From NCBI GenBank assembly GCA_964106915.2, contig OZ066915.1: a DNA stretch of 64,000 bases; one strand, written 5' to 3'. The notes below the pieces were generated by a model. It was not told where the DNA came from, searched no databases, and worked only from the letters and a program-made list of their open reading frames with translations. Shown here piece by piece: positions 5,799 through 32,605 of this stretch. A program made the position numbers and the translations under genes. Within the stretch, counting starts at the first letter, position 1, and the number at the start of each line of letters is the position of its first letter. This DNA comes from Podarcis gaigeae (lineage: Eukaryota).

Positions 5799-8700
5799 CT
5801 GTTTGCAAACAAAAAAGGCTCATCAAGAGCAGATCTACAACTTTACTATGCCGTGCACCCCAAGCCACCCTACAACTTGAAATGTTATAAAACATCTTGC
5901 ACATCAGTGATTACTGCCTGTCAAGACGGCAGACTCCTTTGTCTACAGTATGAGATACCCAATGGAGCACATCGTAATTCGCTGTTGCTGTCAGAGAAGT
6001 GTGTCCTACTTTTTTTTTGGTTGGATATAGCTTTATGTGATGCTATGCTAGAGTAACTTGGCATACCAGGAATCTACTTTGTGGTTCTGTGAGCCTGTAA
6101 GGTGTACCTAGGAATGCCTGGGTGAGAAGAACAGAAAGATCGCAGAAGAGCCAACAGCAGATTGTGGTCAAGGAACACAGTAGGTGCTCCATCCAAGGAA
6201 CGCAGGAAGGAAATCAGTAGAAGAAATTATCACTAAATATGTGTGTTGGCAAGGACTTGTTAAAGAGGGAAAAAGATGAGCGGATGAGTATGGGACGTCC
6301 TACAGCAACTAGAATCTTAGTACTTCACCAAACCATTATTAGGCATTACAAGTATAAAACATCGATATATAAAATTTAAAATATATACAAATAAAAAGAC
6401 ATGTAAACTATATAAAAATGGGATTTCTTTCATTGGGATTTCTTCCCACTAAATAGTGCCATTCGAGATACTGTTGACCAAAACTCAGCCACCCTTGCAG
6501 TTACTTCCAGGTTAATGTCAGACAGATAGATTCCTGTATGCTTATATCAGATTCTGATTGTTAAGACCACACAATCTATTTTAGTGCAAGGGTGGCTAAA
6601 CTGTGGCCCTCCAGATTTTGGGCTTCATCTCCCATCATCGCTGACTGGGGTTGATGTGAGTTGGGGTCCAGTGACAGTCTGAGGGCCACATCTGGTTGCT
6701 TAAAATAAGCCCATCAAGAAAATGCACTTTGGGAGTGGCACTTTCTTTCATAGGCTATGACCATGGTTACATTTAGCAGTAGGCATTGGGCTCAAATTAT
6801 GGCTTACTATGACTAGGGGGTAAGGACGCAGGTGGCGCTGTGGGTTAAACCACAGAGCCTAGGGCTTGCCAATCAGAAGGGCTGCAGTTCGAATCACCTT
6901 GACAGGGTGAGCTCCCGTTGCTTGGTCCCTGCTCCTGCCAACCTAGCAGTTCGAAAGCACGCCAAAGTGCAAGTAAATAAATAGGTACCGCTCCAGCTGG
7001 AAGGTAAACGGCGTTTCCGTGCGCTGCTCTGGTTCGCCAGAAGCGGCTTAGTCATGCTGGCCACATGCCCCGGAAGCTGTACGCCGGCTCCCTCAGCCAA
7101 TAAAGCGAGATGAGCGCTGCAACCCCAGAGTTGGCCAGGACTGGACCGAATGGTCAGGGGTTCCTTTACCTTTACCTTATGACTAGGGGAAATTCTCTGA
7201 AATTGCCATTTTGGGTACCACCCTTCAGGCAATGAAAAGCATTGGGGCTAGGGGTTAGTGCAGACACAGCGATCACAGTGCACCCTCTTTGGGCAGCCAG
7301 AGACTTCGCTCATACTTGCTTTGACCAGAACCAACAGTCTTGCCTTAGGGATATCGCCTACCTCCAGTTTCAATAAGCACATCCAACAGTTCATCCATTT
7401 GCTGGCTTCGGGTCATCTGCTGCAGCAAGAAAAAAGCAAGGGATGTTAGGAAGTTGGTACTGGAGCCACACACTACTATACTAGAAAAATCAGCTTTGAT
7501 GGATATTGAGAGATGCTTTCAAAAGAAAGCTGAAGCCTCAGACATATAAGGATGATAGAATCTCCTTGACAGGCATGTTAAATAAACAATGATTCCTTAG
7601 TAACTAGTTGAAACAGGGCTCCTACAATACTTGAGCAGTTTTTTGTGCGTATAGTAGGCTGTTATGTATTACAATTAATACCGTTATAGTTCATAAAAGC
7701 CTCAGAGAAGCAAGATCAATAGCCCTCCCAAAGTGGAATGAAAACTCCCTCCTTCACTCAGATGTTCAACCTGTAACTAATGTTACTTAGAATAAAATCC
7801 CACCACATTCATTGGTACTTACTTCCTAGTAAGTATGCTTACGTTGGCTCCTGTTAACCCACACAAACTTTGTGTGACCCACTGCAGTTACCTCTTTAGG
7901 GGCCATCCTGCAGTGCTCTTGTGTGTACTTTTTTGAACCAAGTGTTCAGCTGTAGCTTGCAAACTTAGTTCATTCAGAGATCATTCTGTTTCTTCTAAAA
8001 ATTCAGATGGTCCTTCCAACAGAAGTCACCTGAATCACTTCAGCTGCTTATTCAATGTCTGAACAAATAAGAGGTTGAATGAATTTGCATTTGCTTTTAA
8101 TCCAATTGACTGTATATAACTCTTTCTACAACAATAAATTCAGTTTTCAAGGCTGTCAGTAGTCATCTGCTTTCACTCATTGGTCACACAACACTCTCAA
8201 ATCTGCAATTGGCTTTGATGTACATAACAATCAAAGCAAGCTATCTGCAGCCAAGCATAGCCTACCAAGCACCAGACTGTTACCTGTTTCACAGCATCAG
8301 CGTAGGGTGGTGGCTGCTTTCCATCTGGGAGGGCAGCATTTGACTTGCAAAAGCCAGGAGACAGAATGGAATACTTCTGACTACCTTGTGCTGGCACCTG
8401 TGTGGAACCAAAATCAATCACAGGGATCAAGCCAAACTTGGGCCAAGACTGCTATTCAGCAGTTGCCTCCATAAATTTACCTCTTGCACATGGGAACAAA
8501 TCAACAGTCAATGAGGTGATCTCATTGCAAATCCAGTGAAGCATGAGAAAAAGTCAAGGCTCCGGAAGCCCATCTCCCTTGCTGTAATAACAGTTTTGCC
8601 ATTGATAATGGCACTTACAAAGTTCTGCAAAGGAATTTTGAAATAATATTGAATTCCCCCACCCACTAGCAGAAAACTGCAGTAAAGGCTGCCTGTTTAG

Positions 8701-11700
8701 GGCAGGGGTGAGCCAACTTTTTCAGCAGGGGGCCAGTCCACTGTCCCTCAGACCTTGTGGGGGGCTGGACTATATTTTTTTTGGTGGGGGGAATGAATGA
8801 ATTTCTATGCCCCACAAATAACCCAGAGGTACATTTTAAATAAAAGCACATATTCTACTCATGTAAAAACACACTGTTTCCTGGACCATCCGCGGGCCAG
8901 ATTTAGAAAGCGATTGGGCCGGATGCGGCCCCCAGGCCGTAGTTTGCCTACCCATGGCTTAGGTGATATACTTTCTTTTGAATGGGCAGGAGAGAGTTAC
9001 AGGGACACCAAGGGTGGTAATTAAGCTGTATATGTGGAAGAGTGGGTAGTGTCCAGTTTCTTAATGACTTCTGAAAAAGTTGAATCTACTCTGCTTATGT
9101 GTATGCCACCATCCTTGAAATGCCGTTCTGCAACTTGAATGCAAACCAACAGATGTATATTTTAATCACTGGAAGACGGGCAATTAAACTCCTCCTTTCC
9201 TGTTTGGTATTTCATCAACTGAGAAGCAATAATAGCTACAGTAGGTAAACTGGGCCTGGACACATGGAACACAGCCTGCCAGTTTTGAAACATTGCACTG
9301 CCCCCCCAGTCTGATTCTGGGCACAGTTCAAAGTGCCTTTGAAGCTCTGAGCAGTTTGGAATCTGGATAGAATGGGAGCTGCTTTAACACCCTCCCCTAA
9401 CTCTGCACCCCCCAATAATAATAATAATAACAAGTAGCTTTCTTACTGGAGCTGTGCGAAGATGGCTGCTGGGCTGTGGAGAGCTGCTGCGTCCTTCTCC
9501 CTGAGTGCTGGGGGACACAGAGAGGAGGTAATGGCTGTTTGGTGAGGGTGGAAGGCTGATGTGTTGCGGACTCTTTGCTGCCTCTAGTGGAGAATGCTGG
9601 GGAGAGCACTGTGGGCTTAGGAATGTGGAGGACAGTATGCCGCTCTGTCCTGATGGTTCCATGCAATGGCTATTTACAAGATGGGGCAGCTGAGGTGTCC
9701 CACAGTTTCTCAGTGTGTCCGAGTTGCTAGCCTGGCCTTTCAAGGGAGCTTGCTTAGAGGCAAAGGGGCAACTGGACGCTGGGTTTTCTTGCTTGATCGG
9801 AAAGCCGAAGAAGTGTGGAGAGGGCTGCTTCTCGTCCAAGCCGTGGCTCCTTTTGCGCTTCTGCAGCTGCATCCTCAGCTCTTCCACTTGCCTCTGCTCT
9901 TGCTGCAGTTTCCAGGTCAGCTCATTGATGACCTTCTGCTTTTCCACCAGCATCTTGTCTTTCTCTGTGTCAACCCTTTCCACATCGAGCTGGATGCCAG
10001 CGCCGTTCATGCTTCCCATCAGGCTTTCTTCACACCCGCCTTGCACAGGGGAAGGGTGCAGGACAAAATGGGGGGAAGACATTGGTCCTTCGTTGAAACT
10101 GTCTGGCAAGGAGCCATTCACCGATAGGTCTGAGGAAGCTGGGGAGATGGGGGGAGTAGAGCTGGTGCTGCCAAAGTGGTAAAAGCCATTGGACAGCAGG
10201 CTCGCCGAAGACTGCGACTGGTAGCTGGAGAGAGAGTTGGTTGGTGTCACTGGGAAGGTGACGGTGGTTATCTCATTGAAGCTGGGCACAGAACCCCCGC
10301 TGCACTCCTGGAAGGGCCGCAGGCGTTCCATCAAGGCCGTTTTCGTACCTGATACAGGGAGGCCCCTTATTCGGAGCTGCTGCCTCAGCTCCGACACCTG
10401 GAATGAAAGCCGTTTAGTCAGTGGCAAGGTCGCTTTTCAGTTCAACTTTGTGGCAAAGTAGCAACCTGCTTACAGTGGACCCTGACCCAAATCTAAACCA
10501 GAGATTATTTGCACGGACAAAGAGTTGGGCTGGGTAAAGTTTGGGCTCCAAAATGGCTGCTATTAATTGGACTGGATACGTCAGTTTGTCCCTGTGCTGC
10601 TTAGCACAACATTACTTGGACATCTCTAATGATTTCTATTGCCTTAGGTGCTATGCTGTCCAAATTAAAATTATGCAAGTTGTAATAAGCCTGGAGTGGG
10701 ACTGAACGTCTGCACCCAGGGCTTATTTTTCAGCCGGAATTCAGTTTCAGCACCTCTCAGGTGAGCTCCGTTGCCATTCTAAGAGAACAAGGGAGACATT
10801 CATTGTGAGTTCTGGCACCTCTTTTTCTAGAAAAATAGCACTGCCTACACCTAATGAATTTGTGGCTGGTTTTAACCTGGGCTGCCCTTCTTGCATTTTA
10901 GATATAGACAGAGCAGTGCTTCTTGAGAAACTTGGGGGAAACAGAAGGCATGCTTTCCAGTCAACCATCATTACTCCTGAGGATACTCTTCTGTCCCTGC
11001 TTAGGAGCTGCAGCCGTTTGGGCACAGGCAAGTCCTCCAGGTGAAGACTAGGCAGAACATCAGAGCTTGTTGAACTTCCCATTACTTTGCTTCCTGTGGA
11101 TGGCCTATATTTTCAGCAACAGCTGCCTGAGGTTGTGCCTCTGGCACGTGCCTGTGTGTATATAAGTGTTCGCTTAGGGAACTTGGTTTCAATTGATTTC
11201 TTAACGTATGTTATTTTTAATGCTTGAGGGTTTTTCTTGTTCCAGGGTTGCCTTTGTGTTAATTTTGTTTTAATTTAGTGTGTTAGTAAAATAATGGTTT
11301 GCATTCTTAAACAACGAATATTATTGAAATAGAACTGGCTCTGCCATCTGTTTTTAAACAAGCTACGATGTCCGATTTTATTAGTTCTAAGTCAGCTTTG
11401 GCAAATAATAATTTGGTCTCTTCTCTACAGTCCACTGACCCTAGTTGGTCTGTTGATCTTATGGTGGTGTTTGACTGCTTCAATTTATGTGATATTTGAA
11501 TTTTGATTAATTTGGGATATTGACCGAAGTGCATGTGTTAACCATGTGTTTGCTGGAGGAACACACTGCCTCCACATGCAGTTTCATATACCACACAGAA
11601 GGTTTTATACTTTTCATCAACTTTTGCATTCAGTACTCACTTTTAAATCATCCAGGTTGGATGGGAGAGGACCTGGCTTGAGAGACGAAATGCAGGATTG

Positions 11701-14700
11701 CCCTGAAAAGCTTCCCTTCCCAGGGGAAAGAGGGCTGTTGGCAACTGTCGATGGGGAAGAGTTTGAGGTTTTGGCCATTTGCTCATTGGGTTGCCTGTAA
11801 AAAATAAAAGTGCAGAACATTTTTCCCCTTTTGTTTTCTTCTGCTTTTTAAATATCAGTATTCTTACTTACTTCACCAAACCTTTATTAGGCATGACAAG
11901 TACTGGCCATCATAAAACATCCATATATAAAAATAAAAGCCATGTAAAATATATAATTACAAGAATTATCATTGGGATTTCTTCCTGCTAAACAGTGCCA
12001 GTCACCACTCTAAGAGATACTATTGAGAAAATCTCAGCCAAATCTGATATTTTCATTGTGCCATGATGTTAGACTTCCCAAAAAAGGAGATAGCACGTGT
12101 TTACATAGCTGGTTATACAATGGACAGTAGAAAAGGATATGTTCTACAGTGTCTGGCACGTTCAAATAACATCTGCAGTGTCTATCATTTCTGGGGATGT
12201 TTAAATATCTGCCTTTGACAAGAGCTGAGGGGGAAATGTTCAGCTGGGCTCACATAAAGGCCCTGCGTTGGGCTAGAATTATTAATTTTGAGATTTAAGT
12301 GACCCTGTTATCTGGTGTATTTAAACCATAGAACTTGGGGGAGCAAATTTTATTTACAACTGATTCGATGAATGTCCCTTAATCTAGTTTGAATATTGCA
12401 ATAAATATATTGCTCACTTGAATTATACCAGGATTCCAAGTCAATACCAATAGATCTAATTTTGCTATGTAAGAGCTGGAACGATCTGGATGTATAAGAG
12501 TTCTTAAGCAAGTCAGAGAGCAGACTCAAAGGTTGGCAGCAAAAATGGCAACGCAGCCAGTATTTTATAGTGCTAGCCTTCATCCAATATTCCATCATGT
12601 GTACACCTAGTTCTACATACATCGTCTCATACTTGATTGAACTTAGGAGCCCCAGGATACATCTCAAGAAACTTGAGTGTATCTTATCTAAATCACTATT
12701 ATATGCTTCTATCCATATTGGGACCCCAAAAAGTAGCTGGGATGACACTTTAGCTTGAAAAATCTGAATAGCAGCTGGTATAATTTGGTCACCTTTCTGA
12801 AAATAAAAGCGAGCTATTGCTGAGGAGTTACACTTTGCCTGTTTTATAGCACTTGTGCAATGGGTTGACCAACCTGAGTTGCTCTGCAATAAAATTTACT
12901 GCATCACCACTGTTGTCCTGAAGGGTACAATCCTGCTGAAGTTTGGAAGAGTTGACCACGCTTAAAAGGGAGAGGCTTTCTCTCTTAAGCACACACTTTA
13001 ATTTCCTATTTAAATTAACAGAGCTTAAAAGTGACTAATGGGCTGGAATGTGCCCCAAATTGATTGTGGCAAGAAATCAAACCTGGGTAAGGTGGAAAGG
13101 TCACTCTAGGAAACCTTTCCGTTACCAACTCACTTCAGCTGCATGGAATGGGGCCCCGGATAGTTGAAGTGCTGCTGGTGCCGGTGCTGCTGCTGCTGGC
13201 TGAGGATCTGGAGCTGCAGGAAGAGCTGCTGCTGCTGCAGGAGCCTTGCATAGGCCGAGTCCATGGGAGGAGGGGACTTTTCCGCCTTCTGGTCTGGGGG
13301 AATGTACTGGTGGTACTTAAGCTTCTTCACTTTTGGCTTCATCTCCTTGGGCTTTTTGTGGCGATTCTTGCTATCGCTCGATGGTTTTGACTAAATGGGG
13401 CACAAATAAAAATTTCAATAAGATTATCTGCAACATGGAGTAACTGAAGTTAGTTAGAAAGTTTAGCGAGCTCCCGTGCCCAGGGCCTGCCAGCCTGCAA
13501 GTCAGTGGAGATAGTATCAAGACTGTGGGGGGTCATAATAGATGTCCCTTCTCACTAGGGTTGTCGAAGGAATCCACTGAAAACAGAATATCAAGCAAAT
13601 TTCATTTAATCTGCCCATTTTATCCCCACTGGCAGAGACACTCGCTGTGGAAACTATTTACCTTAATTATCTACAACAAACTTAAAAAAAACCACACCAC
13701 ATGAACATGTTATGTGTAAATAGATATGTAAATTGCTTTTCTATATATATTATTTACATCATCATGTATACAGGTGCCTCTTTACTGTCTTTGTTTCTAA
13801 GGCCCTAAGGCCACCTATATGCACTAATATGTTGCAATCCCAACAATGTCTACTCAGAAGTAAATCTCACTGACTTCCAAGTACGGTTACAATTTCAGAC
13901 TTAATCTGTATCCTCTTGTGTATTTTAAAGCCAGTGGAATGCATTGCTCCTTATTCTTTTCACATGGAAAACCACACTTCCTGGGGTTACCTTGACTTAC
14001 AACTAAACTGTTCCTCCCTGATGCAAAAGAGTGAAAAAAGCAAGATAGGATTATCATGTAGCGTAGCTGGTTAGAGCATGGTGCTGATAATGCCAAGGTC
14101 ACTGCATATTCCTGCATTGTAGGGGGTTGGACTAGATGATCCTCAGGGTCCCTTCCAACTCTGATTCTATGACAAGTTTATATTGAACTGTGAAATCAAG
14201 GTAGCGAGAAGTAGAAGACTAGTTTTTTTGCTGCAAAATACTAACATGGTCCCCCCCCCCCCGAAAACACAAGGAATGTAACTCATTTGTAAGTTATCTG
14301 TTGATGGCTGAGATATATGTGTCTAATGTGTGCTACATAAAAAAAAAATGTTAGAAATTACAAGTATTTCCACATCAGCAGGCAATGAAACAGCACACAA
14401 ACTTTTGCAAAATAAACCAATTGCATAGGAATGGAAAACATCAGAAGAAAGTGCAAATGAATATTGCAATTGAGACGTGTTTGTACATCCCTTCTTCCCA
14501 TCTGACCTTCTGTAGTTGAGTACAAGGAACAAAATATACAGGCACCACATCATTTGTAAAGGGCATGTTTATATATTTATTAGCCACACATTCCTTTTAA
14601 AACAGTCTGAAGCAGCAGTCTGGTCCTTACCCAGATGACACTTCCAAGAATTTTTAAATGATATGTATCTAATAATATACTAATGCATGTTTTACAATCG

Positions 14701-17700
14701 TCACAGTACTGGTGTATTTTGTACTTGGATACTCTGACCCAAATATAAAATCTCAACATGTAACGCAGCCTTAAGATAGGCCTGCTGCTCCCAACATCAT
14801 GGGACAGTCCTCAGGTCACCTCCCCGGTGACCATTTTTAAACATTAGGTATGTTCGGAATTACAACTCCCGTTATCCATAGCTAGCATGACCAGTGCTCA
14901 AGGGTGATTGGAGCTGTAGTCTGTAACATGGGCAGGACACCATGTTGCCCATCGTTGCTTTACGGCTTTTAAATATTTCTTTCATTTTTAACTTGGGCAG
15001 CATCCAGCTACTCCCCTTTCCCCCAGAATGCCTCTGCGTCCACCTCCATAGGAAAGGAGTAAAGAAGGAAAGCTATAGGGCAGTGCTTTGCCTTCCAACT
15101 TTTCTCTAAATATCACAAGAAAAGGGATGGAGGGCCCTCTTGTTGCCCTAGAGGGACAAGGGAGTATTTTGTCTGTTTTGAAGGGCAGAGTTTCCCTAGA
15201 TGTTTTGGGAAGAGATACGTGCATAAGTGGTTTGTCTGTTACTTAGTGGTTTACATGGAATATTAAATATACATTAAAATTATCCATAAAAGTTCAGCAA
15301 CTTTAAAAAAAAATCAAAATATAAATGGAAATTAGTAGTTTAAAATATACCAGTGTTTGGTTTGGAGTATGCATGGATATTATTTCTGTTGTCTGGGGCA
15401 ATATTTCTGAGTATTGCCATTTTCCCTCTCTGAAATGGGTATTTTGTAGTGCCCATGACAGCTTCATAGAATCCCACAATTCCTGAGACAGATGAATGAG
15501 CCATCTAACATAAGGTCCTGTTGGCGCTATTGTTGGAAACAGCTTGGCTTCAACAGATCATCAAAGTCTCAGCTTGCTCCTTTTGCAGGTACTTTCACCC
15601 CAGAATTCTAATGGACCCAGTTTTGTGACACAAGGAGGTACTGTCTGGGTAGTTCCTAGCGACTCCCATCTCCAAGCAAAGCCAACACTGTAACTCACCT
15701 CCCCAAACATTTAAACCAGTCCCCCCCCCCTTACTGCAGATGAGTGCTAGCTGTTGTCTAGCCAATAAGCCATGTTAACAATTTTTCTTCCTACGTAGTG
15801 GGAGGTTAGGCTCATACCTTTGCAGATGTGGTAACAGTGCCAGGAGGTGTTTGTTGCCCATTCTGTTGTTTAGGACTTTCTGGCTGGCCATTCCTCAGAG
15901 ATGTCATATCAGCCGTATCATTTTCAGAGCCAACGGAATGATCCTGGAATCAAAATAAATACATGGAAATTAATAAACATCAATATGCACATTTTCAAGA
16001 AGCCTATCCACATGCAGGCAGCTTACAGACTATTACAGAAATGGTCCATGCTAGTCTTGATCAGCACCAGTGATCTTGACCTTGTTTGGAGCCTTAACTA
16101 GGACTGGACTACATGTTAGCACTTTTTTCAACTGGCATCTCCATGATCTGTATTTAGAGCAGCGTAAGATGGAAGTTTCCTTGTCAGCATCAGATGCTCC
16201 TGGAAACTATGTGCACCAGCCTTCAACAACCTAGTGACCACCTGATGTTACTGGACTACAACTCACAACATCCAATGGGGATTGTAGTTCAAAGCAAGCT
16301 TTAGTGTATTAGGCTGGGCAAGGCTGCTCTATGCAATCAAGAGGATCTACGGTAGATGTTAAAGCAATAGCATGGATTGCCGACAGAAGGCAGTCTTCCA
16401 TAGGGATAAGGTTCCATATAAAATGGGCTTGACACTGAAGGAGGTAAAAGAAATGGATGACAAGCTGTGAGAGCAGTGAACTACACTCCTAAAATCACTT
16501 GATCTTAAAACGGCTAGCTAGCTAAATCCAATCCACCAACTGATAAATGCAAAATTCTTCTGTAACGGACATTCTATAAATAAATGTGTTTTTTTAAAAA
16601 AAAAATCAACAAAAACTACCTTGGAGGCCCCCAATTTCTCAGTCTCCATCATAATCAATCAGCATATTTTGCTGGTGACTCGGGACTCCCTGCCATGGCA
16701 TTTCTACACAGCTGAGACCAATCGCATTTATCAGGCTAGTGTTATTAGGGAAACCAAATGGACGAATCGTTGGGCTCTGTGCCATAAGTGCTTGGAAAAT
16801 GGAGGTGCCCCATGCCAAGTACACTGTGTAACAAAACTGCCGGAATGGAGGAGGGCACTCCAAGCCAAGAATATGTCGTGTTCAGGTTAACAGTGGCTCA
16901 GGATCCTTTGCAGGACACCCCCATGTTTTATGTAACCACCAGAGGCTGACCTTACAGCTGGCTTCCTCCATAGGCTGCAGTGCCCTCAGAGAGATCTTGG
17001 CATGCATTGCATCTTTTTACCCACAACGAGTTCTTATTCCAGCCCCGAGGAGAGGAATATGCTTCCTCTGGCATCAGACATTTTTTCCTAATAGAAGCTC
17101 TTGTACTCATTGTCCAGTACTGGATGCTGACTGGGGGTGAAGACAAACGTAAAAAGTTTATAGCAGAGGGACTGATTTGGAAGCACACTCACTGTGCTGA
17201 ATCCAAGCGCATGTTTTCTGACCTGGATTGAGCTTGTGGGAGGTGGGTGTGGCTTGGTTCTGCAAATTTAATCCAAAGTATCAGGACGTCTCATCTGTCC
17301 AAAAGTAAGAAATACCGTTTTACCTGAGTTGCCCCTGACATTGTGGATAACGTTGCTTCTGAAATTTTGATTCCGGCTGCTGATTCTGTGGATCCCTGGG
17401 AATCCTCGCTTCTGATCTGCTCTGGGGACAGCCCATCATTGCTACTATCTTCTTCAAAAGCAAAAGCATCTGAGGATTTAGAGAAGTTTCCTTGGTTACC
17501 TGTGGCAAGAAGGAAGAAAAAGACTCAGTGATAGGTGATTCTGAATGGCAGTAAGTTTTTAACAAGTGTACATGTGGCAAAGCAGACAAGTGATCTTAAC
17601 ACACTACAGTATTCACAGATGTACGCTTTCTTGTTCCTGTCAGGTAGGTAAAGCTGTGATTTATTTGTGCTCAAAGGCAAGTACCAAAGCAGCAAATTCA

Positions 17701-20700
17701 GTATGGTTGACAAACATTCAACTGAGAACTATTATAGAAAACCACTAATGAAGCAGTGGTTCGATAACATGTAAATGGTGTGCTAATAAAATCTGAATTC
17801 AGCAATTGGTTCCACTGGCTCTGTTGAAGGTCCAGCTCCACCAGGTCTTTCTCCATCATCCTGGGAGCAGTCATCCCACCTGAGTGCATCAGACGGAGAG
17901 ATGGGAAGCATGATTATTGAGAGGGACTAGCTCCTTGACTCCTCTCCCTGAACTGTTTCCACACCAGCTGGCCCTTGTGAACATTTTGTAAGTTTAAGAA
18001 CTGCTGCTTCAGCTTGCTTTCCCCCTCCTCACTCCATCCTTTCCTCCTTTTGAGTTCTGCATTTTAGATCAGAAGCCTGAGGGTTCCCATGTTTCTTAAT
18101 TGCTCTATAAGCTGCTCTGGAATCATTTTCAGCTGCAGAACGGGATTACAAATGCTTTAAATAAATAAATAATTCTCAAACATTGGTTACTGGAACTATC
18201 TGATTTCCCATGAGGTTCTGATTCTCCGTGGAACACACATTTTCAGGATTGCTACTATTTTACTGGGTTTTGCTTTTTAAAAAATGAGGATCTTCTTTCT
18301 TTTCAACTGTTTTTGAAGATGTTCATAATTTTGTTTGAGGCACTATATTATATGTGCCACAGCTTGTACCCATCAGTCTTCAGACCCTCCCCCCTGCAAG
18401 ATAGCAGATCTTTAATAAATCCAGAACCTTCAAGGATAGCATCATTAGAAGGCTCTTGTTTTTATCCCAAAATTTCACAACTCTGCAGAATGCAATCGTC
18501 ATCCCATTTCAAATTGCATCGTCTCTGTATTAGTTCAGATTATTCGTTTAAAAATGCAAATTTGTTTTTAGATGCACATTTCAAAGTGGATGTGGCCAAA
18601 GTGTAAAAGTGGGCAAGGTCATTCTATTTTAAAAAAATATAGGGCACATTTTAAGAGTCTTGGAGGTTGGGGTTACAAAAAAACCCTTTTGACATTCTGG
18701 AGTCACAGCTGGGAATTTGTGGGAGTGGGGAAATAGGAGCAGTCAATTTTTAAAAAAGACAATTGGGGTGTGGGTGTGGGTGTGTGTCTTGGAAGCCCAC
18801 AAAAAAAATAATTGGGGGGTCAAATGCTGCTTGTGCACCATGGTGAGAATACTCCAAGAAACTCATCAAGAATGTGCCCCCAAACAATTCACCAAATCAA
18901 TAGCTTGCATGGTTTTTTTCATCCTACAACCTCCTTTGAGAAATGCTGCAAAGATGCGACCCATTGTGCTTCTACGCGAATCAATGTGGCTTATGCCAGA
19001 TGATGCTTCTCTGCCATTCAGCATACTCAGTGGGTTCTGGAAAGTGTTCCTGTGCAATATCCCGCAAACTAGCAGGCAAAAGCGCTTGACCCTTGGCTTT
19101 TGCTGATAAGTAAAGTGCTGGGAAAGACAGGCTCTATCACAAAAGCCCCTGCAAGGCTGGAAGACAGAGAGTAGGCAGTGGAAGGAAGGAAGATTCCTGC
19201 TACACGCTGTAATCTTTCCAGGGACATGTCTGGCTTTGATCAAGTTTCTTCCTACTCTGCTAGTGAAGAGGGATTTGAAGAGGGCAGGAATGAAGGAACC
19301 ATTCTAGGGTGCTAGAATCCTACTAGCTCTTCAACATGGATCTGTACTCTCTTATGGGAATTATTCCAAAGGCATTCCCATGGAGAAAACATCAAGAACC
19401 CTACATCACATTGCAAGGGACCCTCTCCACAGCGAGTCTTTTGTATAGCCTACTGTGCATGGATGTTGCTATAGCACCAGAGGTGCCTTTCCTGGTATTA
19501 CCTTTGATGGCTTCTTTCACAGCTGAGTCAACAGGAATGATATTCTTCTCCACCAGCTCCAGAGGACCTGGCCTAAGAGCAATTTTCTCATTTAGATTGT
19601 CTGCAAGACGGGCTCTTTTCAGTTTCATCTGAGTAGCCTGGACAGACCCTTCTGTGGCTGAATCTGTAAAGCCAAATGGTAAAAATATAAATTATTCCAC
19701 AAAATAACCAGCCTGTGCCACAGCTCCTTTCCTTTTATCACTTCTAAGAAACACAGGATAAATTCTATGTCAGTGCTTTCCCAGTAATTAGAACCTGAGT
19801 GTAGCTGTAACACAAAGCATTTCTCTTGAACCATAAAACAACTGTGGCTTGCCAATCAGATCGGCAGTTTGAATCCCCACAATGGGGCGAGCTCCTGTTG
19901 CTCTGTCCCAGCTCCTGCCAACCTAGCAGTTAGAAAGCACGCCAGTGCAAGTAGATAAATAGGTACCGCTCCATTGGGAAGGTAAACAGCGTTTCTGTGT
20001 GCTGCTCTGGTTTCGGTGTTCTGTTGCGCCAGAAGCGGCTTAGTCATGCTGGCCACATGACCCAGAAAAAACTGTCTGCAGACGAACGCCGGCTCCCTTG
20101 GCCTGTAAAGCGAGATGAGCGCCGCAACCCCACAGTCGCCTGCAACTGGACTTAACTGTCAGGGGTCCTTTACCTTTACCTTTAACCACAACTAGCCACA
20201 GAGTGCAATGATGACAGGTGTGCTTGTAGATAAGCTTTTCTCACTGCTGATATGATATGCAGTCAATTTTAACAATGCTCAAGATACACGGAAAGTATTA
20301 TCTGTACATAGTTCCCTGTAGCCAAACAAAATAATTCCAAGGTTCAACCCAGTGCACCACACCCTTTATGTGTGTCTGCATACCAGCATGGCTGAGCCAC
20401 AGTTTGCTGGGGAGTGGGTAGCACACAAGCAAACAATCCTTCAAATGCCATGCTGGGCATGGAATCCTATGCAGGAGAGTCATTTCTGCAAGCCCAGTAA
20501 AAACTTGGTTTCAAAAGCTAAATGAGAATTGCAAGAAGCAGTATCTAAAAGAGGGAATAACTTGCTTCATGAGATGTGCATTTCCCCCCAGTTGTATAGT
20601 GTGTGCCATACATGCTGGAGCAACAATTGCCCCAGCCAGGCTCAAATAAAACCCACCCCAGATTTGTTTATAGAATAACATCATGCAAACATCATCATAA

Positions 20701-23700
20701 ATCAGTTCGATGATTATTCTTGTCCCCACCCTGAAGGAACCCAAGGTGGCAAACTAGCAAAGATTACAAACATTTTAGAAAAGTTTTAAAACCTAAAATA
20801 ATTCATAAGCATTCCATAAGCAGGAGACTGCTACCAAGAAGGCCTAGATTAGGGCAATAAAAGGTGCTTTTATACCTTTCCTGAAGAGGGATCAAAAGAC
20901 ACTGAGGCTTACTCAGAACATGGCAGAAGTGTCTTCTGCTGTTGGCTTGCCACAACTACAAGAAGTGCAAAACATCTAAGGCAGTCTCCCACAACCTGGT
21001 GCCCTCTAGAGGATTTGGACTACAATTCCCATCAGCCCCAGACCACATCGTCAATGGTCAGGGATGATGGGAGTTGTCCAAAACCCTTGCGGAAGTCTAG
21101 ACTATCTATTAACATAGAACAGTTCATTTGCAATTCGGTGGTGTATTTCTGTACTTCCAAACATGTAAAAAGAAAGCTCAAGGTCATGATCCCCATAAAA
21201 TCATCAATAAAATACACTGCTAACAACAAAATTACACCAAATTAGTAAATCAGAAATATACACTACTAAACTGGATCACCCTTGAGTAAACAAATGTTTT
21301 TTAAGTAGGTACCGGAAATAGCAACACTATAGGTGCCTGCCTTACCAGGAGCTCATTCCAAAGGGCATGTGATGTAATACTGAAAGCCCTGGGTTTTTGC
21401 AGACATAAGATGAACGTCAGGAGTAAGCAGCACCTTTAAGAGTGTCACCCCCAGGGATTGAAGTGACTGGGTAGGGATATACAAGATTAGGTGGTCCCAA
21501 AGATAATCTGGTTATTAAGCACTTTGTATGCTAATAGCAAGATCTTAAACTTATTCATTCAATCTTACCCTGTAAAATGTGCATATCAACCAGTTCTGAG
21601 CGCTCAGGTCTGTTTCGGGTCTTGTGCTTTAAATAATCTTCAGTCTACAGAACATAAGAACAGAGATCATTACCTCACTAGCTTGATTTAAAGTGCATTA
21701 GGCAATGCTTCTTTAAAAGGATTCAGTCAGACTTGGTCTAACTGACGTTCATTTTAGTTAACATTTGTTCTTCTCTGGTAGGACCCACACCAAAAGATTC
21801 AAGTTACAGGAAAAGAGATTTCAGCTCAACATCGGGAATAATTTTCTGATGGCAAGAGCTGTTTGACAGTGGAACCGTCTAAGCAGAAGCCATCTGCTTG
21901 CTTTAGTTGAGATTGCAGGGGTTGGACTAGATCAGGGGTCTGCAACCTTTAAGACAAAAAGAGCCACTTGGACCCATTTCCGAAGAAAAAAAACTGGGAG
22001 CCGCAAAACTCGTCATTATAAAAATAACTTTTTTGTCACTTTTTATTATTTCTTTGTTTGACCCCTCAGAATTACTCCTCCTCATAGAAATAAACGTTAA
22101 ATTAACAAGTTACCTTTTTGTGTGTGTGTGTTCTTCACTTCCCTTCAAAACAGTGACCAGCATACATGCCCCCTTTCAATGCAGTGACCAGCGTACATGC
22201 CCCTTACAGTGTAGCGGGCGGGCGGGAAGGTGACGTTGGGACGGTGCGTGACTAACGCACGCAACCGCCCCCATGCGACGTCACAGCCAGTACAGCGCCG
22301 CCACAGTGGGGAGTGTCAGGGCGCACAATGCGCCTCCTCCCCTCGCTAGTATCCGCCCTGGAGCCGCGGCAAAGGTGTAAAAGAGCCACATGCGGCTCCG
22401 GAGCCACGGGTTGCAGACTCCTGGACTAGATGACCCTCAGGGTCCCTTCCAATTCTATAATTATCCCACAACTTTTTGTCTGGATACTGAATGTCTGTAG
22501 GCTAGGACTTGGATCTTTGAAGAGCTCCATTTGTGCAAACCCGAACTTTTGGCAGGTTTCCCAGAATGCAAGTAACTTATAATTGGCACAAAGGAATCAT
22601 AATACTACACCAACTTTTAATATGCACTATATTCAGCACAATTTCAGTTTAGCTTACGGCACAGATCTTAAACAAGTGTAAAACTCAGCCCTAAGTACCC
22701 AGCTGTATCAAAGTAAATTTATTTACTTCACTAGAACTCATCTAACAGCAGCTCTGTTGTGTTTTAGCTAATAGGTATTTAAAATCCACCGCAATTAAAT
22801 TGGTGTAGTTTCATGTTATGTGTGAACAAAGATTTTCAAGTAGGCTTCCCATCAGTCCCTCTCAACCAAACTAGCTGTGAAGTATTCCAATGTTGCTTCC
22901 CCCTGCCAGCCCCCAGGCCCCTCCCCAGCTGAATAAAGGCTTAGAATATATTTTTGGTTCTACTTCTCCCTAAACGAATGTAGTTTAGGGCTGTTGACTC
23001 ATATAATCCTTTTTTCTTCCAGGCAATCGGCCAGTAGAAGCCTTTGAAGGGAGACTGTGAGATATTAACCTATGCCTGAACATTGAGATATAGGGTACTT
23101 CTAAGATACTTCAGACTTCTTGAAGTGTTAAGCACATTTATTTTTCACAGGGGGCTATACATCCTTCCTTACGTTGATCTTGAATTTTTGCAGGACACTC
23201 ATATACAATAATGTAACATAGGCATCTTCTAAATGCCTATACATAAATTTCATCAAGAGTTTTGAAAGTAAGTTAATATATATGTACACAGAATTGTAGA
23301 ACTATAAAAGGATTCACTTGTTTGGCTTCCTGACCTAAATTTCCTCTACATATTAACTCCTATGCCATAAACAGAGGAAATAAAGGATAAGGTGCACCAC
23401 AAATTCCCATTAAATGGGACAAATTAACAGACGGCAACTACTACTACTAATAAAAATTCCGAGCAAATTAAGTCATAGTTTCTAGGACATTACAAAGTTA
23501 TCATATACTATTGTCCATCTAGCCCAGCATTGTCTATTGTAACTAGCAGCATATCTCCATATCTCTTTACCAATCTTGCTGCTGGTGTCATTGGACCCGG
23601 GTCGTCATCCGTGCAAAATACCAGCTTTATGAATGAGCTATAGGCCTCTCTCTATATGGACTGTATTCTTTATATAAGAGAACTGCTATCAGTCTTGGAA

Positions 23701-24186
23701 AAGGCTTCTCTAAGCAGACAGTTCCCCAATTTCCCCCTTTGGCAAACTGCAAAAAACACAAATTTTGAAGGATGGCCTTGTTTAAGTTTGCGTATTATTT
23801 CTGAAATTGCAAATTAGGTAGCTTCGCCTTTAAATGTAAACAGAATCAAATTTCTGCCCCTGCCCCCCCCCCCCCGGTACACCTCTAGTAAGAGCCTTGG
23901 CTGGAGACTTGCAGCAGGGAAAGCTTGAGAATATCTTGTACTTTCTCTAAATAAGACCAGATCACCAGCTCTTCCACTAGTGGGGTAGGTGGGGGGGGGG
24001 ACTGCCTCTTAATCTTATCTTTCTCATTAGCTTTAATTAACAGTGCCTAAACTCTGCTTGATAACTGGTGCCAGCAAGAGACAAGAGTACAGGTTAAGAA
24101 CAGCCCAAAAGCACTGTGCAGTGTCACAAGAAGAGAAGGGCAATATGGTGTACTGCAGACATCAGGCACAAGGTTTCCTACTGGGG

Positions 24187-24226
<40 letters not shown>

Positions 24227-27200
24227 CACAAAGGCACTTTCTCATGGGACATGTGCCAATTAAGTTTAGAGCCCTGTAAAGGTGTGCTAAAGGTATAGTA
24301 TCTGCAGAAATGAATCCAGTGATTTTCCAATTCCACTCACATTCCTGCACATGGCCACAACCTTCTCAGCAGCTAGTTAACCTGCATGATGCCATCTCCA
24401 GCCACCCCCTCTGATGCCTACCCAGGGTTACCTTGGCTCTCTCCAAGCTCTTCTTTTGCTCATGGAAGGGAGAGGGGGTTTTCAGTGCTGCAATCAGAAA
24501 CAGACAAAAGCACAATGAGCACAGCAAGCAACAAGTACATTTTCAGCATTGTGCCATTGTAACAAAGTTCAACAAAATTAGCCACACAAATCAGCCAGCC
24601 CCTTTATTGCATCAAATTAAAATGAATGAGGAATAACCACAGACATTCCCAGGCCAGGCTGTGGCAGTGGAAACGAGGCAGAGAGGAGCAAAGACACAGA
24701 TGGTAACTAAAGCAGGGGGAGAGCTGAGAGTTGTTTGGAGACAGCCATCTTTTTTAAGGCATCTTAGAGGGAGGTGAGTGGCCTGGCGGTAAAGTGCAGC
24801 TTGTCCAGTATCCAAACACATTGGGTGAGAAGCTCAAGAAACAGAGCCTTGCACGTTAATCCTAGACGCATTTGGGGAGCTTGGTTTTAGTGGAGTTGAC
24901 TTCCAGCTAAAGTGATCAGTCGGGGAGGAAGGATCTAGTTATGGAGAGGACCACCAGTGATATTAATGTCCAGAGGAGACCCGCTAATAAAATTGAGAGT
25001 CTGAGTCTCATTGTATCACATGGGTGTCAGCAACACATACAAAATCAGCAAGGAGGATAAATTGCTCCATTCTGTCACACATTCTTTTCAAAATGAGCTC
25101 TCCTTCCTTCATCCATTGGCAAAATCTCCTTCTCGATATAAGAGAGTGAGCAGAATGCTCCATTAAATTCTGATACTCTCCACCAGTGCCTGCTCTGTGT
25201 TCTGAACCACATATGTTTGGAGGACATATTTGTTTCTTCAGATTGCAGTTCCATCGAGATTAAAAAAAAGAGGGTCGCCTCCTCCACCATATCTTAACGC
25301 CCTCCAGTGATAAACATGCTGTTAGGATTGAATCACAACTCTGTATTTGTCCTACAGGAATAAATGGCAGCAAGGAAAAGGTAGGGGCAAAACCTGCTCC
25401 TTGAACTCCACTCCCCAACTGGCAGTCCAGCTTTTTCCTATCTGCATAGTCTCATCATGGAGCCTTTTTTCCCTCTCCCTACCATCAGTGTTGGCTAGTT
25501 CTCACTGACTAGGAAATTTGTACTTCGTTGTACTCTTATCACCAAGGGGGAGGCTGTCCCAATGTGTTCACAGGCTTCGTGAAGATGACTTGGCACACAG
25601 TTCCCAGCTCATTTGGGTCTCACTCTCTGAACCATTTCTGGGTCTTGCTATTTCTTCTGTGTCATGGGTTAAGGGCATGAGAGGAAAGCATCGCTCTTCC
25701 CAAAGCTGCGCAAAAGCTCTTTATCTCATGGCTGAATTGTAGCCTAGTTATTTATACAGTGAATGTTGTCCAGAATCCAAAAATAAAGATTGCAGACACA
25801 ATTCTCATCTCCATTTTAATAAGTGTCAAATTATTGTTTGTTTGTTTCCTTTGCACAAAATGTGACTGGGAGCACAGTCAAACTGTGGGACAGGAAAATC
25901 AAAGGCCAAGAGAATTATATATTGTGTGATTTTTATTTATTTAAAAACCCTCTTTTTTTCAGTAAAATAAAATAAACAAAACAACCCAAACTGCTTTTAA
26001 CAAATGGCTTCTCTAGTCTCCACATGCCAGTTGTTACCTCCCATCACCAAACGGATTTATTGTCAGAGTTATGAGTCATTTTGCATTGACGCAATTGGAT
26101 GAGCTAATTTATTATTTGCCTCCTGTAGTTAACTAGATCCTAAAGCACGATAGATATTTTGTTTTATTGAAGACTCAAACCCTGCACAACTAAAAGGCCA
26201 AACAAAAAGAAGAAGAAAATCTTAAAGTGAGTGAGTAAATAAAAAAGTGTCACAGAGCACCAAAGGCAAAGTTAGAGGAGACACCTCAGTGGTAAAAGAC
26301 GGTTGTAAAACAGATTCTGGTAAACTTCATAGGGTGAAAACCATCCTACTTTCAGATATTGCAAGAGCAATCTGAGAAGCTGGTGCACCAGTGCAGAGGC
26401 TTGGTTCACAGCTAGTGGGATGGTGGGAAGAGCTTTGAGAGAGCATCCGATAAAAGTAATCTGCAAAGCAGAAAACCAGTGTTGTTCTTCTGCACAGTTC
26501 AATTAATGCACATTACAGAACGCTAAAGTTATGTAGGATCCATGACAAAGGATGGACGCAAAACAAAGGGACCTTTGCCAAGAGGATTGATGTGAATTCT
26601 GCAGACAAACCAACAGCATATGGTTGTCTGAGAAAAAATCTATGTCAATATGGGGTTGAATGTGTTGGTTCTTCCATGAGGGAAGTTGTGGCAGTAGTGG
26701 AATTTTAGAAGTTAAAGTCTGGAGTGAGAGTACAATGATGAAAGGAGAATTACACACATAGGATTGTATCCAAAGTAGCATTGAGTAATATTTTCTGACA
26801 GAACAAGGATTTCCACTTGCACAGCTGGACTTACCTCCTCTCCCCTCTTGTGTGCTTCCTAAATCTGTTTTAGGGGCTCTCCAAACTCTCCAGCAGAGTA
26901 GATTTGGGGAGTGAGTTGGACACAAAGGAGGAAAAAGTCCCAATGTGCAAGCGGAAATCCTTGTGCTGATGGACCACGTTAGTTGGATACTGCCCCACAA
27001 CACAGACCTGTCCTGAGCCTTCAGTTATCACAATTTTTAAGAGCATGTGCATTGAATAATGAGTATTGCAATTAAACATAATTAACTTTCTCATTGTGCC
27101 TGCCAGGAAAGGCTACTGCTTTTGGCCATAGGGGTGGGAAGTGTTTTGTTTTCACAGAGAAAAGAAATCAGGAAATTGCTATAATTTTAGAAGACAAATA

Positions 27201-30200
27201 ACAGATTTGAAATCTTATAGTTTATAGCCATTTTGATTTTAAAAGCATGACATGAAGTTTGAATGCTCTGGTTTGAGAGGAAGGGTCCCAGTGAGAGTGC
27301 CACCATGGTGTTAAGAGAGGCTTGTCAGCTGTGTGACTTGCTTGCCGATGATAAATAGTGGCAAACCAATAATGAGTAAAACCTGTGTCTATGACCCAAT
27401 CATATGAATCTTTGTTCATATGAGTTTGGGTACATTAATTTATTGATTAAACTAGCATACATTTGCATATGAGATAAAAACGGTTCTAAAGAAAAACATA
27501 CTTTGTTTTAAAATTATGCCCACAAGTGGCACAGTAGGCCTCATCTTTGAAGAGCTGTCCCCTGTTCTATCACACACAGAAGGACATGACGCTGCTTGAC
27601 ATCTTTAAGTACTTATGTTAAAAACTGATAATGTAGATATACCAATTTGGGGGCAGCTTGTCAGCTGATCAAATTAAACCTATTAACCTAACCAATTAAC
27701 TGACTAAATCCTGAACCCCTACTAACACCACTAACTAACTGACTGCATTTACACACCACAGTAAATGCTTTTGCCATAAACACAGGTAATGGTTTAAACA
27801 TAAACACACAGGGGCTTCCTGTTTTGATCATTCCCTAGCAGGAAGAACAAAACATAATCCCTAGTGTTACATCTGAATTGGAGATAGCAGTTTATTTCAC
27901 TCCAAACAAAGTTTGTTCTTGACTTACCAATCAAACTTAGTTTGAGTGAAACAAATCACAATCCTTGGCTCAGATATTATTAGGGATGTAAGAAAACATC
28001 ATTTTCTGTTCTGACCTCTATTTGTTGCATGCAGCACTGTTTATGTTCCACTGCGCTATGTCTTCCAAAAAACCCCCACTTTATCTGTATTTCCATCAAC
28101 TGTGTCAAATTATGTACCTTATATAATTTACATGCAAATTATGTTGCCGTGATGTTATTCCCCCCTATTCATTTCAACGCAAAGGAAACACAATGCAAGT
28201 AGGGGTGGGGAAAAGTAATAATTTACGTATCATCTGTGGACTGAAAGCAGCAGCAACAACAGGTGAATTTCCATTTTGGACATGGGATGAATAAGTGAAC
28301 ATTGGCAATTTCCACTCCTGTTTCCATTTTTCTTGGAATTCTGCAGCATCCCCAGATGTAATGTTAAGCCAGGGATTGTGCTCATGCTTGCAATAGGGGA
28401 GAAGCAAAGCAGGTGTGATCTCCACATTCACAACAAACCATTAACTGTAGTTTATATTAATTGTGAACTGGGCAATGAGGCTTCTATATAGGCTTATGAG
28501 CCTTGTCAATGTGAGAAAAGGCATCAAAGGAGAAGGCAAAACAAAAACCCACCCTTAAATTAGGAGGGCTGGAAGACCTAATACTATGGACATGTGCAGA
28601 AAACATGTGATTTATTTGCTATATTTATATATGCTGCTCCTCATTTTTTGTGAGGTTCTCAGTGGTCTCCTATCCAATTCCACACTCACTTAGTATCAAT
28701 CAAAACAAAAAAAAAATTCCTTCCAGTAGCACCTTAAAGACCAACTAAGTTAGTTCTTGGTATGAGCTTTCGTGTGCATGCACACTTCTTCAGATCGAAA
28801 GCTCATACCAAGAACTAACTTAGTTGGTCTTTAAGGTGCTACTGGAAGGAAAAAATTTATTGTTTTGACTATGGCAGACCAACACGGCTACCTATCTGTA
28901 ACAGTATCAATCAAGTTACATCATGTATTCCCAAGGGATTTGCTGGGCAGTGACTGCAAACGGGATGTAGTTGGGTGTAATTCTCTAACTACCTACCACT
29001 GATGTGAATGCCCAGGAACAAAAGTAATCAATGGGATCTCTTCCTACAACATAGGAAGCATGATTATATTAAGGGCAATTACCTTGCCCTTTCTAAGTTT
29101 TGCATAAACCGATTAGGAAGGCAGTCGAGAAATGGGCAAAGATGTGCACTTTTTGTCAAACTCACCAGACAGGTATGAGATGCATGTACTTAGCATGGGT
29201 CCTTGGGCGGTTTTTATATCCTTCAAAATGCATCTAGGGAAATGTCATATCTGAAATAGCCCTAAGCACATACTAGTTGAAGCCCATGGTCAAGCATTGT
29301 GTCCTAGAAAGAAAGATGTTTGGGACTGTGGAAGAGGGGGAGATGAAATAAGGTGAAAAGTCTGGAGTCATGGTGGTAACCCATTTGCCTCGGACGCCTA
29401 AACAAATGCTGCTATTCTTGCCTCCATACCCCTTACCACTTTCTTTCTCCCTCTCTTTGAGGAGTAAAATGCCTTTTAGGGGGTAAACTAGCAGCCTTTA
29501 TGGGGTGTCAGAACATCCCCTGACAGTTGGCAAACACCAATGACACCTCATTTTTGCAGAACATGACAGTTAATTCTGATAGTGGGATAGGATTAAACCT
29601 GCCAAGAACTTTGGGCAATGTATTAAATAAACAAGTCTATGTGGATCCACTCTGTCACACATAACATGCTGTACCTGCACTACATACACTGAAATGCCTC
29701 ATGAAAATGCCAAACTGCTGCATGCACCATTCGTATGGAAGCGACAGACATTCCACGCCAACAATGTAGAATGTTTTGCAGGAGGTGGCTTAAGAGGAAA
29801 GCAATAGCAGAGGCCAACTACAACATGCGGCACCCAAAGGCTTAGGCAGTCACTGTGTGTGGCTCAGAATCAGTGTGATCCAGCAGAGAGAGAGAGAGAG
29901 GGTGGGTGCTTGGGGTGGGAGACCTGGATTCAGATCCTAGTTTGACCATGGACTCACTGGGTGGCCTTGGGCAAGGTGTTATCTCTCTCAGTCTCAGTTT
30001 CCCCATCTGCAAAAAATTGGAATAACAATGACCTGCCTCATAGGATTTTGCAAGGTGCCCTACATCCTAAATGAGTTATGAAAATGATACAGTATAGTCT
30101 ACTTCAGGAATAATCAAGCCCAAACTCCCTTTCCTGTGAGGCTCATTAGAATCCTAGATTTTGGGATGCATGTGTAAGTAATCTTCTAGTCCCGAGTTTA

Positions 30201-32605
30201 ACAGTAATTGCAGTAACAAGCTGAGTATGTGATGGCAAAAATTCCATGCAATCTGTAGTGCCGGACCAGTTGCTCAACTCAATCTCCTGCTTATGATTGT
30301 ACCAGAAATAAATATTTTTTGCAGCAGTACAGACTTCTCAGGGTGGGCACTATGTAAGAAGTTATCTCTCTGCCACAAATATTTCCTTCCTGCATAAGAG
30401 TTGCAGAGGTACATAGCACCAGATCTGTGTGTGCTAAAGTGGTGTACGTGTACAAGCCTGCTTTGCCCTTCTTAGAATCAGAAACAGTCCCTAATGATGC
30501 AAAATTGTATTATATTTATTTGGTGGTGGATAGTGTGACCCTCAGCTGAGGCTGCATGGGCCTGCTAGTGCATAAAAGATAAAAGTGAGAAAGCAAAGTA
30601 CTCACGTGGCATGATTCCCTGGTTGGCGAGCTGCTCTCGGCTTCTTCGCTGCTGCAGCCGCAACTGTAAAACTGGGAGAGAGTGCATCTTTCAGAAAGGG
30701 ACCTCGAACTTCTGCCACAAATAACTCCAAACTTTTCATTTGCTGAGATACCTTCCGCTCTGCTGCTAAAGAGGGAAGGTTCAGATCTCTATCACATGCC
30801 AAAAAAAGGAGTCATCCTTGTTACAACAGCAGTGTAGATCTGACCTATTACTGGAATGCAGCTTTCTTATTATCTTACTAAAACTAAGCCAATTAACCTG
30901 GAGTTTGGTCAAATGACCATTTCCCTTTCTCCATCCTCTCCACACACACAAGTTAACAACTTCATAATGCAGCAGACGCAGTTGCTAATGTTACTACATT
31001 ACCAAAAAGATGAAAATTTATCAAGCTATTCTAACTGTGCTGCTTATTAAGATTTTCGAGTAAATGCTTCTCTGCTACACATGTTATTTAGGGTTGAAAG
31101 AAGAGGAGCCTTTTGCAATAGTTTCTATTCTAGAGTTCACAGGAAACAACTCAGAGTTACAAAAAAAATTGCTGCAGATCTGGAAAACATGGTCCACACG
31201 GATATGTGCTGCTCCGTTAGCTTAAAGAAGGAAAGGGAGTTAAAGAAAATGAATTATCTATGATCACATTTACATGAAAAGGTAGACAGGATTTGTTTTC
31301 TATGCAATAGATATGCTTGCTCTGCCAGGTGCAGCCAGGAGATGATCCACTGGACTGAAATTCTAGCTTAAACAAATTCTTAAAAATTTAGTTTGAAATG
31401 AAAAGCAAACCAGCACACCATCTTGTGTAGGGATGAAATCGATCCTCTTGAGATTTGGCCCATTTTAATGAAAGTGATGAGTGGATGTGGCTCAAAATGA
31501 AAAACTGTCTAGGAAACTATGGCCTAATGTACATAACAGGTCTGCCTGCAGCTATAAATAATCCAACTTAATCTTGACACCTCTGACATATATGAAGTCC
31601 AGCCTGCTCCCCCTGTTACTGCTTCAGAATGCCCTTCCTTCTTTGCACCTCATTGCAGGATGGAGAGCCACTTGTGTTTGGCAGATCATTAGCTTGCCCT
31701 GGAGAACAAACACTTGCCTTGTGTCTCTAGAACTGACATATCTATCAGGGGTGCAAATAAAAACAACAACCAATGTCTGCAAATTTCAAATCAAACCTAA
31801 CAGTATTCTGAACATTTGATTAAAAGAAAATGTGATGAGGGAAGATGGAAACTAAAGAAATTTTTGTCTGCTTTGTAGATATATGAGGCATTTAGCAGGT
31901 GAGGGTCAATTTATTAATCACAGTCACTATAGGAGACCAATCCAAATTGCTCCACATATTGTACATGTAGACTTACTATTCTAAAGCTGCAACCTTAGTC
32001 ATAATTCCTAGAGAATATTTCATTATGGTGGAACTTGGAGTAAACATGCATAGGATTGCACGGCAACAGGATGGTTTTCACCATGTTGTTACCAAATTTT
32101 AGATCGGGAGCTTCCAGAGTGGTTGTTTATTTAGCATGCATATGTGTGCACAAAACATATGTGGCAGTTATATGACATCACCTGCTTACTTGGCATTCAT
32201 TCACGTGCAGGTAACCCAATACCCCCAGTGAGTGTTATGCAACACTTCCCAGTGCAATTTCCCACCACTTTTCTTATCACTTTCTCCTTATCAGACTTTT
32301 AGTGGTTATAAAACTAACAGCATAATTGCACTAGAAAGTGTGGAATAATAACCACTTTTTCTGCATATTAACATCCCATCTGGAAATGCCCTTCATCTCT
32401 ATAAAACTGAACTTTTAATCAGCAACAACCCGTCCCCCCCAAAAAAAACCCAAAACCCATCTCAACTTAAGCAAAGAGCTACTGCACATTATGGCTAACC
32501 ACATAATTTCCACACAGTGAGCTTAATATATAAACAAACCCTTAACTTAATATATAAATCTGCCCTTTTAAATTTCCATTGAAATATATATATAAAGAAT
32601 GGAAT

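Follow-up and report, generated by a model that had tools for sequence, protein, structure and literature searches.

The RPEL1-RPEL2 unit of the MRTF coactivators is reported to decide their actin-regulated nuclear accumulation (PMC2583105, citing Guettler 2008), and in MRTF-A the RPEL-bound G-actin is described as competing with importin for a B3/B2 signal whose B3 element lies inside RPEL2 (PMC2964165). Dissociation constants given for MRTF-A are 1.0 uM for RPEL1, 1.9 uM for RPEL2 and 28.9 uM for RPEL3 (PMC2583105). The RPEL2 contacts reported in the mouse protein are L118, I122, K121, R125, P126, R128, L131, I136 and L137 (PMC2583105, Mouilleron 2008); according to the same report P126A weakens binding 16-fold, E130 makes no actin contact and E130A changes nothing, and the weak actin binding of mouse myocardin is put down to I122G and P126S. 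The published accounts consulted here treat myocardin as constitutively nuclear, on data from the mammalian protein, and a sponge MRTF paper is silent on this constitutive nuclear state (PMC9287330). The myocardin (MYOCD) gene of the lizard Podarcis gaigeae was analyzed here in a 64-kb window, i.e. the whole stretch of contig OZ066915.1 under study. Its RPEL1-spacer1-RPEL2 unit resembles that of the MRTFs, as the original prediction had claimed, and this resemblance appears to be an ancestral feature of MYOCD.

MRTF-A numbering was carried over to the lizard protein through alignment with PDB entry 2YJE, and eight RPEL2 positions were scored (K121 was omitted and Lys was allowed at 128). RPEL1, which the exon model and residue scoring place in exon 2 (30606..30671, minus strand, also containing Met39), keeps all its contacts, namely L74, L78, R81, R82, R84, L87, I92 and M93. 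RPEL2, in exon 4 (21569..21644, minus strand), keeps seven of the eight: P126 is present, and the helix-1 contact Ile122 is replaced by Thr, a change that the original prediction did not mention. The bipartite B3/B2 elements lie within the RPEL domain, as KHK at 119-121 in exon 4 and KLKRARLAD in exon 5; the latter exon (19502..19663, minus strand, from the exon model) also encodes spacer 2 and RPEL3. Spacer 1 is encoded by exon 3 (24432..24487, minus strand) and shows Thr-Pro at the position of the MRTF-A S98 ERK site. This position reads Asn-Pro in Podarcis and Zootoca proteins, so a possible phospho-switch may vary within lacertids. The peptides quoted in the original prediction were found exactly where it had put them on the minus strand (30648, 24449, 21611 and 19574). 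The human myocardin sequence that it gives agrees with P0287 (MYCD_HUMAN), and its MRTF-A sequence holds for guinea-pig and snake MRTF-A, which read RPERSEL, and fails for mouse MRTF-A (PDB 2YJE), which reads RPERAEL. The "perfect RPxxxEL core" that it had stressed is indeed seen in RPEL2 and is a poor marker, because E130 makes no contact, E130A is neutral and the window RPEL2 lacks Ile122; the Pro is found in 13/48 placentals. The Glu of this motif was rejected as a marker of actin binding, E130A being neutral and birds having Asp there.

The same positions were compared across vertebrates with one hand-picked protein per species, duplicate isoforms and fragments having been removed (11 of the 16 MRTF rows were unnamed and were assigned by sequence). 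All eight RPEL2 contacts are present in 16/16 MRTFs, in the single amphioxus protein, in 9/9 fish and coelacanth proteins and in 47/48 birds. They are complete in one of three crocodilians and in none of 12 turtles, ten of which keep seven contacts, position 128 being Gln. Among amphibians the full set is found in 1/23 frogs and in none of the three caecilian and salamander proteins. The echidna protein keeps six, and no placental keeps all eight (0/48): four are kept in 4 species, five in 24, six in 18 and seven in 2. P126 is retained in 13 of the 48 placentals and I122 in none, and the basic B3 residues are kept despite the loss of I122, P126 and hydrophobic contacts. The homologue searches brought up no MYOCD from marsupials or sharks. 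Lacertids share the I122T change, and most other squamates show His in place of R128.

R84 of RPEL1 is found in all 14 squamate isoforms that contain exon 2 and also in birds, turtles, crocodilians and fish, and all 48 of 48 placentals as well as echidna have Gln there; the weight of R84 is uncertain because the R84-actin contact reported from the crystal is a main-chain one (PMC2583105). E110, R111 and Y/F117, positions which were picked after the alignment had been viewed and are not documented contacts, are all present in 48/48 birds and 9/9 fish, and all absent in 44/48 placentals. Since the contacts are common to birds, fish, coelacanth, MRTFs and amphioxus, the MRTF-like unit is taken, from the alignment, to be the ancestral MYOCD state, with this lizard as a slightly eroded example. 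A lizard-specific novelty was rejected: birds, fish, coelacanth and amphioxus show the MRTF-like state better. The alignment proposed in the original prediction thus maps RPEL2 decay to placentals, to frogs and partly to squamates. The idea of a reptile trait later lost in mammals stands as regards decay on the mammalian side and falls in that the trait is not reptile-specific; nor is the decay one mammalian event, since frogs decayed separately and squamates in part.

Some lineage details were also observed. L131 is Pro in 10/23 frogs (P0407-P0433, P0436, P0450 and P0452 of the amphibian set), and Xenopus and Hymenochirus have a three-residue deletion following the Arg-Pro core of RPEL2. Armadillo, carnivores, some bats and mouse lemur (P0266, P0270, P0271, P0284, P0365) still have the Arg-Pro of RPEL2, position 122 being Val or Ala; mouse and human may therefore stand at the most degenerate end of the mammals in this respect.

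Constraint was estimated as mean within-group identity of RPEL2 and of the region after RPEL3, a measure which is no formal selection test and which compares clades of different ages. RPEL2 is the more conserved of the two in birds (0.986 against 0.913, 41 proteins), turtles (0.976 against 0.944, 10 proteins) and fish with coelacanth (0.90 against 0.785, 8 proteins), and the less conserved in frogs (0.71 against 0.825, 7 proteins) and placentals (0.70 against 0.86, 46 proteins). Such values are as expected if RPEL2 is under purifying selection in birds, turtles and fish and under relaxed selection in placentals, frogs and, partly, squamates. Pfam RPEL scores fall in the same order, with 79.1 bits for MRTF-A, 63.8 for pigeon, 53.7 for Podarcis and 43.3 for human.

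An MRTF-like RPEL domain could also be expected of a misassigned MRTF locus, or of a lizard MYOCD whose RPEL exons had been converted to the sequence of an MRTF. The window holds a 13-exon MYOCD gene on the minus strand (41352 to 5230), modelled with the guidance of the myocardin of Podarcis lilfordi (P0003), which agrees with it at 100% in exon 5. The joined open reading frame (ORF) encodes 939 residues with one terminal stop, and all 12 introns are GT-AG. Coding exon 1 (41298..41352, minus strand) carries the cardiac start and the MEF2-binding N-terminus, matches P. lilfordi residues 1-18 at 100% and ends on a GT donor; exon 4 corresponds to residues 60-84 of the same protein, also with a 100% match, and has the Met80 codon at 21584. 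Exons 6-13 (5230..17499, minus strand, stop at 5232-5230) encode the B1 basic and Q-rich regions, the SAP domain, the leucine zipper and the transactivation domain. The SAP domain was identified by Pfam in P0003, the P. lilfordi protein, which is 99% identical. The hallmarks of MYOCD (MEF2-binding N-terminal exon, SAP domain and C-terminus) are all present in the window. Identity is 931/939 with P. lilfordi, 932/939 with P. muralis and 639/939 (68%) with human MYOCD, compared to 344-411/939 (37-44%) with three MRTFs; chance likeness is excluded by the intact GT-AG model and the identity to Podarcis MYOCD. Use of exon 4 and inclusion of the cassette exon described below are taken from database gene models, and none of the 20 sequencing runs listed with exon 10 is recorded as RNA. 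No gene other than MYOCD was recognised in the 64 kb.

A tree of 30 proteins was built after removal of all sequence up to RPEL3 (quick IQ-TREE run, with support from the Shimodaira-Hasegawa-like approximate likelihood ratio test, SH-aLRT, only; the amphioxus branch is long and its row sparsely filled). A branch with support 91 sets the MYOCD rows apart, MRTF-A and MRTF-B being separate, and the window is sister to Podarcis MYOCD (support 100) within sauropsid MYOCD. Misassignment or conversion, for which the likeness of the RPEL exons is the sole argument, is thereby largely refuted: in the RPEL-free tree the window falls within MYOCD, the gene has the MEF2-binding exon 1, and the MYOCD of fish, coelacanth, amphibians, turtles and birds shows the same RPEL state, as does the amphioxus protein. 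We give this explanation hardly any credit. The tree and the identities over 939 residues bear out the claim, first made from the termini, that the gene is myocardin, and by these comparisons it is an ordinary lacertid MYOCD.

Database models point to alternative splicing of the N-terminal region. In mammals exon 2a is reported to bring in a stop, translation then starting from a second ATG in exon 4, 79 residues in (PMC9900090, PMC3941051); rat exon 2a is 44 nt long, and RBPMS is described as activating it via downstream CAC clusters (PMC6613909). The window contains a 49-nt cassette bounded by AG and GT (30006-29958, minus strand), about 600 nt after exon 2, which matches isoform peptides of Varanus, Anolis and Tiliqua and of an unnamed protein, and is likely the counterpart of mammalian exon 2a. 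It is found in isoform models of eight squamates (P. muralis, P. raffonei, Zootoca, two Anolis, Varanus, Tiliqua and Pogona); the cassette peptide is absent from the 10 Hemicordylus isoforms listed and from the bird and turtle isoforms listed. The 200 nt that follow it (29757..29956, minus strand) contain nine CAC motifs, candidate RBPMS sites, a count reached in 2.5% of 719 windows taken as background. The flank of exon 2 is richer, with 12 in the 200 nt downstream, so the CAC evidence is weak, and CAC enrichment was rejected as strong proof of exon 2a identity. Inclusion of the cassette shifts the frame of the exon-1 ORF, which then ends after 65 codons at a stop in exon 3 (24462-24460). The cassette opens with an ATG whose frame continues into that of exon 3; initiation at this codon would give a product that loses RPEL1 only and retains spacer 1, RPEL2 and RPEL3. 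Restart at Met80 may still dominate, because the cassette ATG needs leaky scanning past Met1 and Met39. The proposed splicing switch through a Met80-initiated isoform is complicated by the cassette's own start, although Met80-start models are also found among database isoforms.

Other arrangements of these exons were observed. Some models from Zootoca, Salvator and many amphibians leave out exon 2 without breaking the frame. In skink models (P0486, P0489, P0491, P0494 and P0007 of Tiliqua) the cassette is read in the exon-1 frame together with a frame-restoring short exon, so that RPEL1 and spacer 1 are separated by an insert of about 36 residues. The cassette presumably resembles the core of a MIR/CORE-type short interspersed element, which would make it an exonised repeat.

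A further N-terminal variant concerns the first exon. MYOCD models of gar, eels, turtles, birds, squamates and echidna (P0400, P0049, P0007, P0461, P0476, P0497, P0050, P0098, P0541 and the turtle and bird isoforms) include a leader ending in a Pro-rich ERKN-like motif and homologous to the MRTF leader that carries the export signal NES1 and the ERK dock. It is absent from the 115 new proteins of a mammal-directed search (cluster representatives only), and tblastn with the leaders of three relatives located no such exon in the window (best E 0.077).

The best explanation for the whole is, in our opinion, that localisation of this lacertid's myocardin is regulated by actin, and we rate its chances as slightly better than even. 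G-actin would dock on RPEL1 and RPEL2 and mask the B3/B2 import signal as in MRTF-A, the full-length protein being partly kept out of the nucleus until actin polymerises; Rho-driven polymerisation would unmask the signal and switch on SRF/MEF2 targets. The full-length protein of the window likely binds G-actin better than mouse myocardin, given its B3 and B2 elements, its full set of RPEL1 contacts, the seven contacts kept in RPEL2 and the Thr-Pro at the S98 position. The Thr at 122 would probably make the response weaker than in MRTF or in the myocardin of birds or fish, and N-terminal splicing likely tunes it. Mouse myocardin given the MRTF-A RPEL domain is reported to acquire actin-regulated phosphorylation (PMC4963197), so the rest of myocardin can be regulated. 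AlphaFold is said to give the RPEL1-actin geometry even for mammalian myocardin (PMC9900090), so a favourable model would have no discriminating value.

Several observations weigh against actin-regulated localisation. Ile122, here Thr, is one of the two positions blamed for the weak binding of mouse myocardin; none of 19 squamates plus tuatara keeps all eight RPEL2 contacts (13 keep seven), and within squamates the rest of the protein is better conserved than RPEL2 (0.885 against 0.835, 14 proteins), with the differing clade ages bearing on all such values. The exon-1 isoform has no equivalent of the MRTF-A export signal NES1, and the relatives' alternative leader has no S33-Pro motif. Affinity for import factors is also reported to govern nuclear accumulation and to differ among family members (PMC3362810). 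No actin-binding or localisation data were found for any non-mammalian myocardin. Non-mammalian myocardin might thus bind G-actin and yet stay nuclear, actin dampening its activity or phosphorylation there, or shuttling might be confined to the isoform that has the MRTF-type first exon. MRTF-A is described as needing several export signals beyond the RPEL domain, with NES1 N-terminal to it (PMC4963197), and the corresponding region is missing from the exon-1 isoform and degenerate in the alternative leader; moreover nuclear G-actin is reported to repress MRTF regardless of localisation (PMC3941051). The reported role of the RPEL1-RPEL2 unit in setting regulated nuclear accumulation (PMC2583105) speaks against binding without shuttling, which we regard as possible and rather unlikely. 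A still less probable account is that the sequence owes its conservation to something else (the B3 import signal, the binding of ARP5 or slow evolution) and that the lacertid protein already binds actin weakly, as mammalian myocardin does. The location of B3 inside RPEL2 (PMC2964165), the binding of ARP5 to the myocardin N-terminus, the Thr at 122 and the drift of RPEL2 in squamates and frogs would agree with it. However, the residues kept in birds and fish include P126 and hydrophobic contacts outside B3 (L131, I136, L137, I122), placentals keep the basic B3 residues while losing these, and the helix leucines are not needed for ARP5 binding.

A wider scenario can be drawn from the comparative data. 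Actin sensitivity of vertebrate myocardin is likely ancestral and lost in mammals. The RPEL1-spacer1-RPEL2 unit itself was lost in steps there, R84Q and the loss of Y117 being already present in echidna, spacer-1 decay and I122 loss being general in placentals, and P126 having gone in many lineages, not all. In its full form the scenario is tentative, and we hold it at somewhat less than an even chance: the ancestral jawed-vertebrate myocardin would have been an actin-regulated, mechanosensitive shuttling coactivator, still so in birds, turtles and fish and more weakly in lizards; the constitutively nuclear state would be derived, reached by mammals and approached independently by frogs, and accompanied by loss of an MRTF-type first exon in placentals, whereas squamates would have gained a cassette exon with its own start, giving an isoform that lacks RPEL1 alone. 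We found nothing in the literature on the RPEL sequence or actin regulation of non-mammalian myocardin, in a search that may have passed over specialist papers with a cross-species alignment; the sequences being all public, the pattern may be known to specialists. The rule that myocardin is constitutive and MRTF regulated goes back to work on the mouse proteins. Should it apply to mammals alone, results on the development of heart and smooth muscle in chick, zebrafish and reptiles need rereading, because myocardin in these animals could link the expression of contractile genes to actin and to mechanical load. The graded contacts (bird 8/8, lizard 7/8, echidna 6/8, placentals mostly 5-6/8) provide natural variants for mapping the passage from a regulated to a constitutive coactivator.

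Two other elements were observed in the introns of the window. An inverted repeat at 28700-28868 has 73-nt arms, 93% complementary and 23 nt apart, and we take it to resemble the ends of reptile Penelope-like elements. Intron 8 contains an open frame of 181 codons (12895-12353, minus strand), by eye a retroelement remnant, which gave no Pfam match.

Compared with known systems, the window gene shares with mammalian MYOCD the MEF2-binding start in exon 1, Met80, RPEL3, the B1/Q region, SAP, the C-terminus and a frame-disrupting cassette between exons 2 and 3. It differs in keeping R84, E110, R111, Y117, P126, R128 and L131, which are mostly lost in placentals, and in the cassette itself: rat exon 2a has 44 nt and an in-frame stop, whereas the window cassette has 49 nt and its own in-frame ATG. 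Among the database models compared, the cassette peptide was seen in those of squamates only. With MRTF-A and MRTF-B (MKL1 and MKL2; PDB 2YJE and 2YJF) it has in common the RPEL1 and RPEL2 contacts (seven of eight in RPEL2), B3/B2 and a proline-directed S98 site; the MRTFs are nevertheless paralogues, and the window gene has Thr for Ile122, a MEF2-binding exon and no NES1/S33 region in its exon-1 isoform. The MYOCD of birds, turtles, crocodilians, fish and coelacanth has the same MRTF-like RPEL unit, in a better preserved form.

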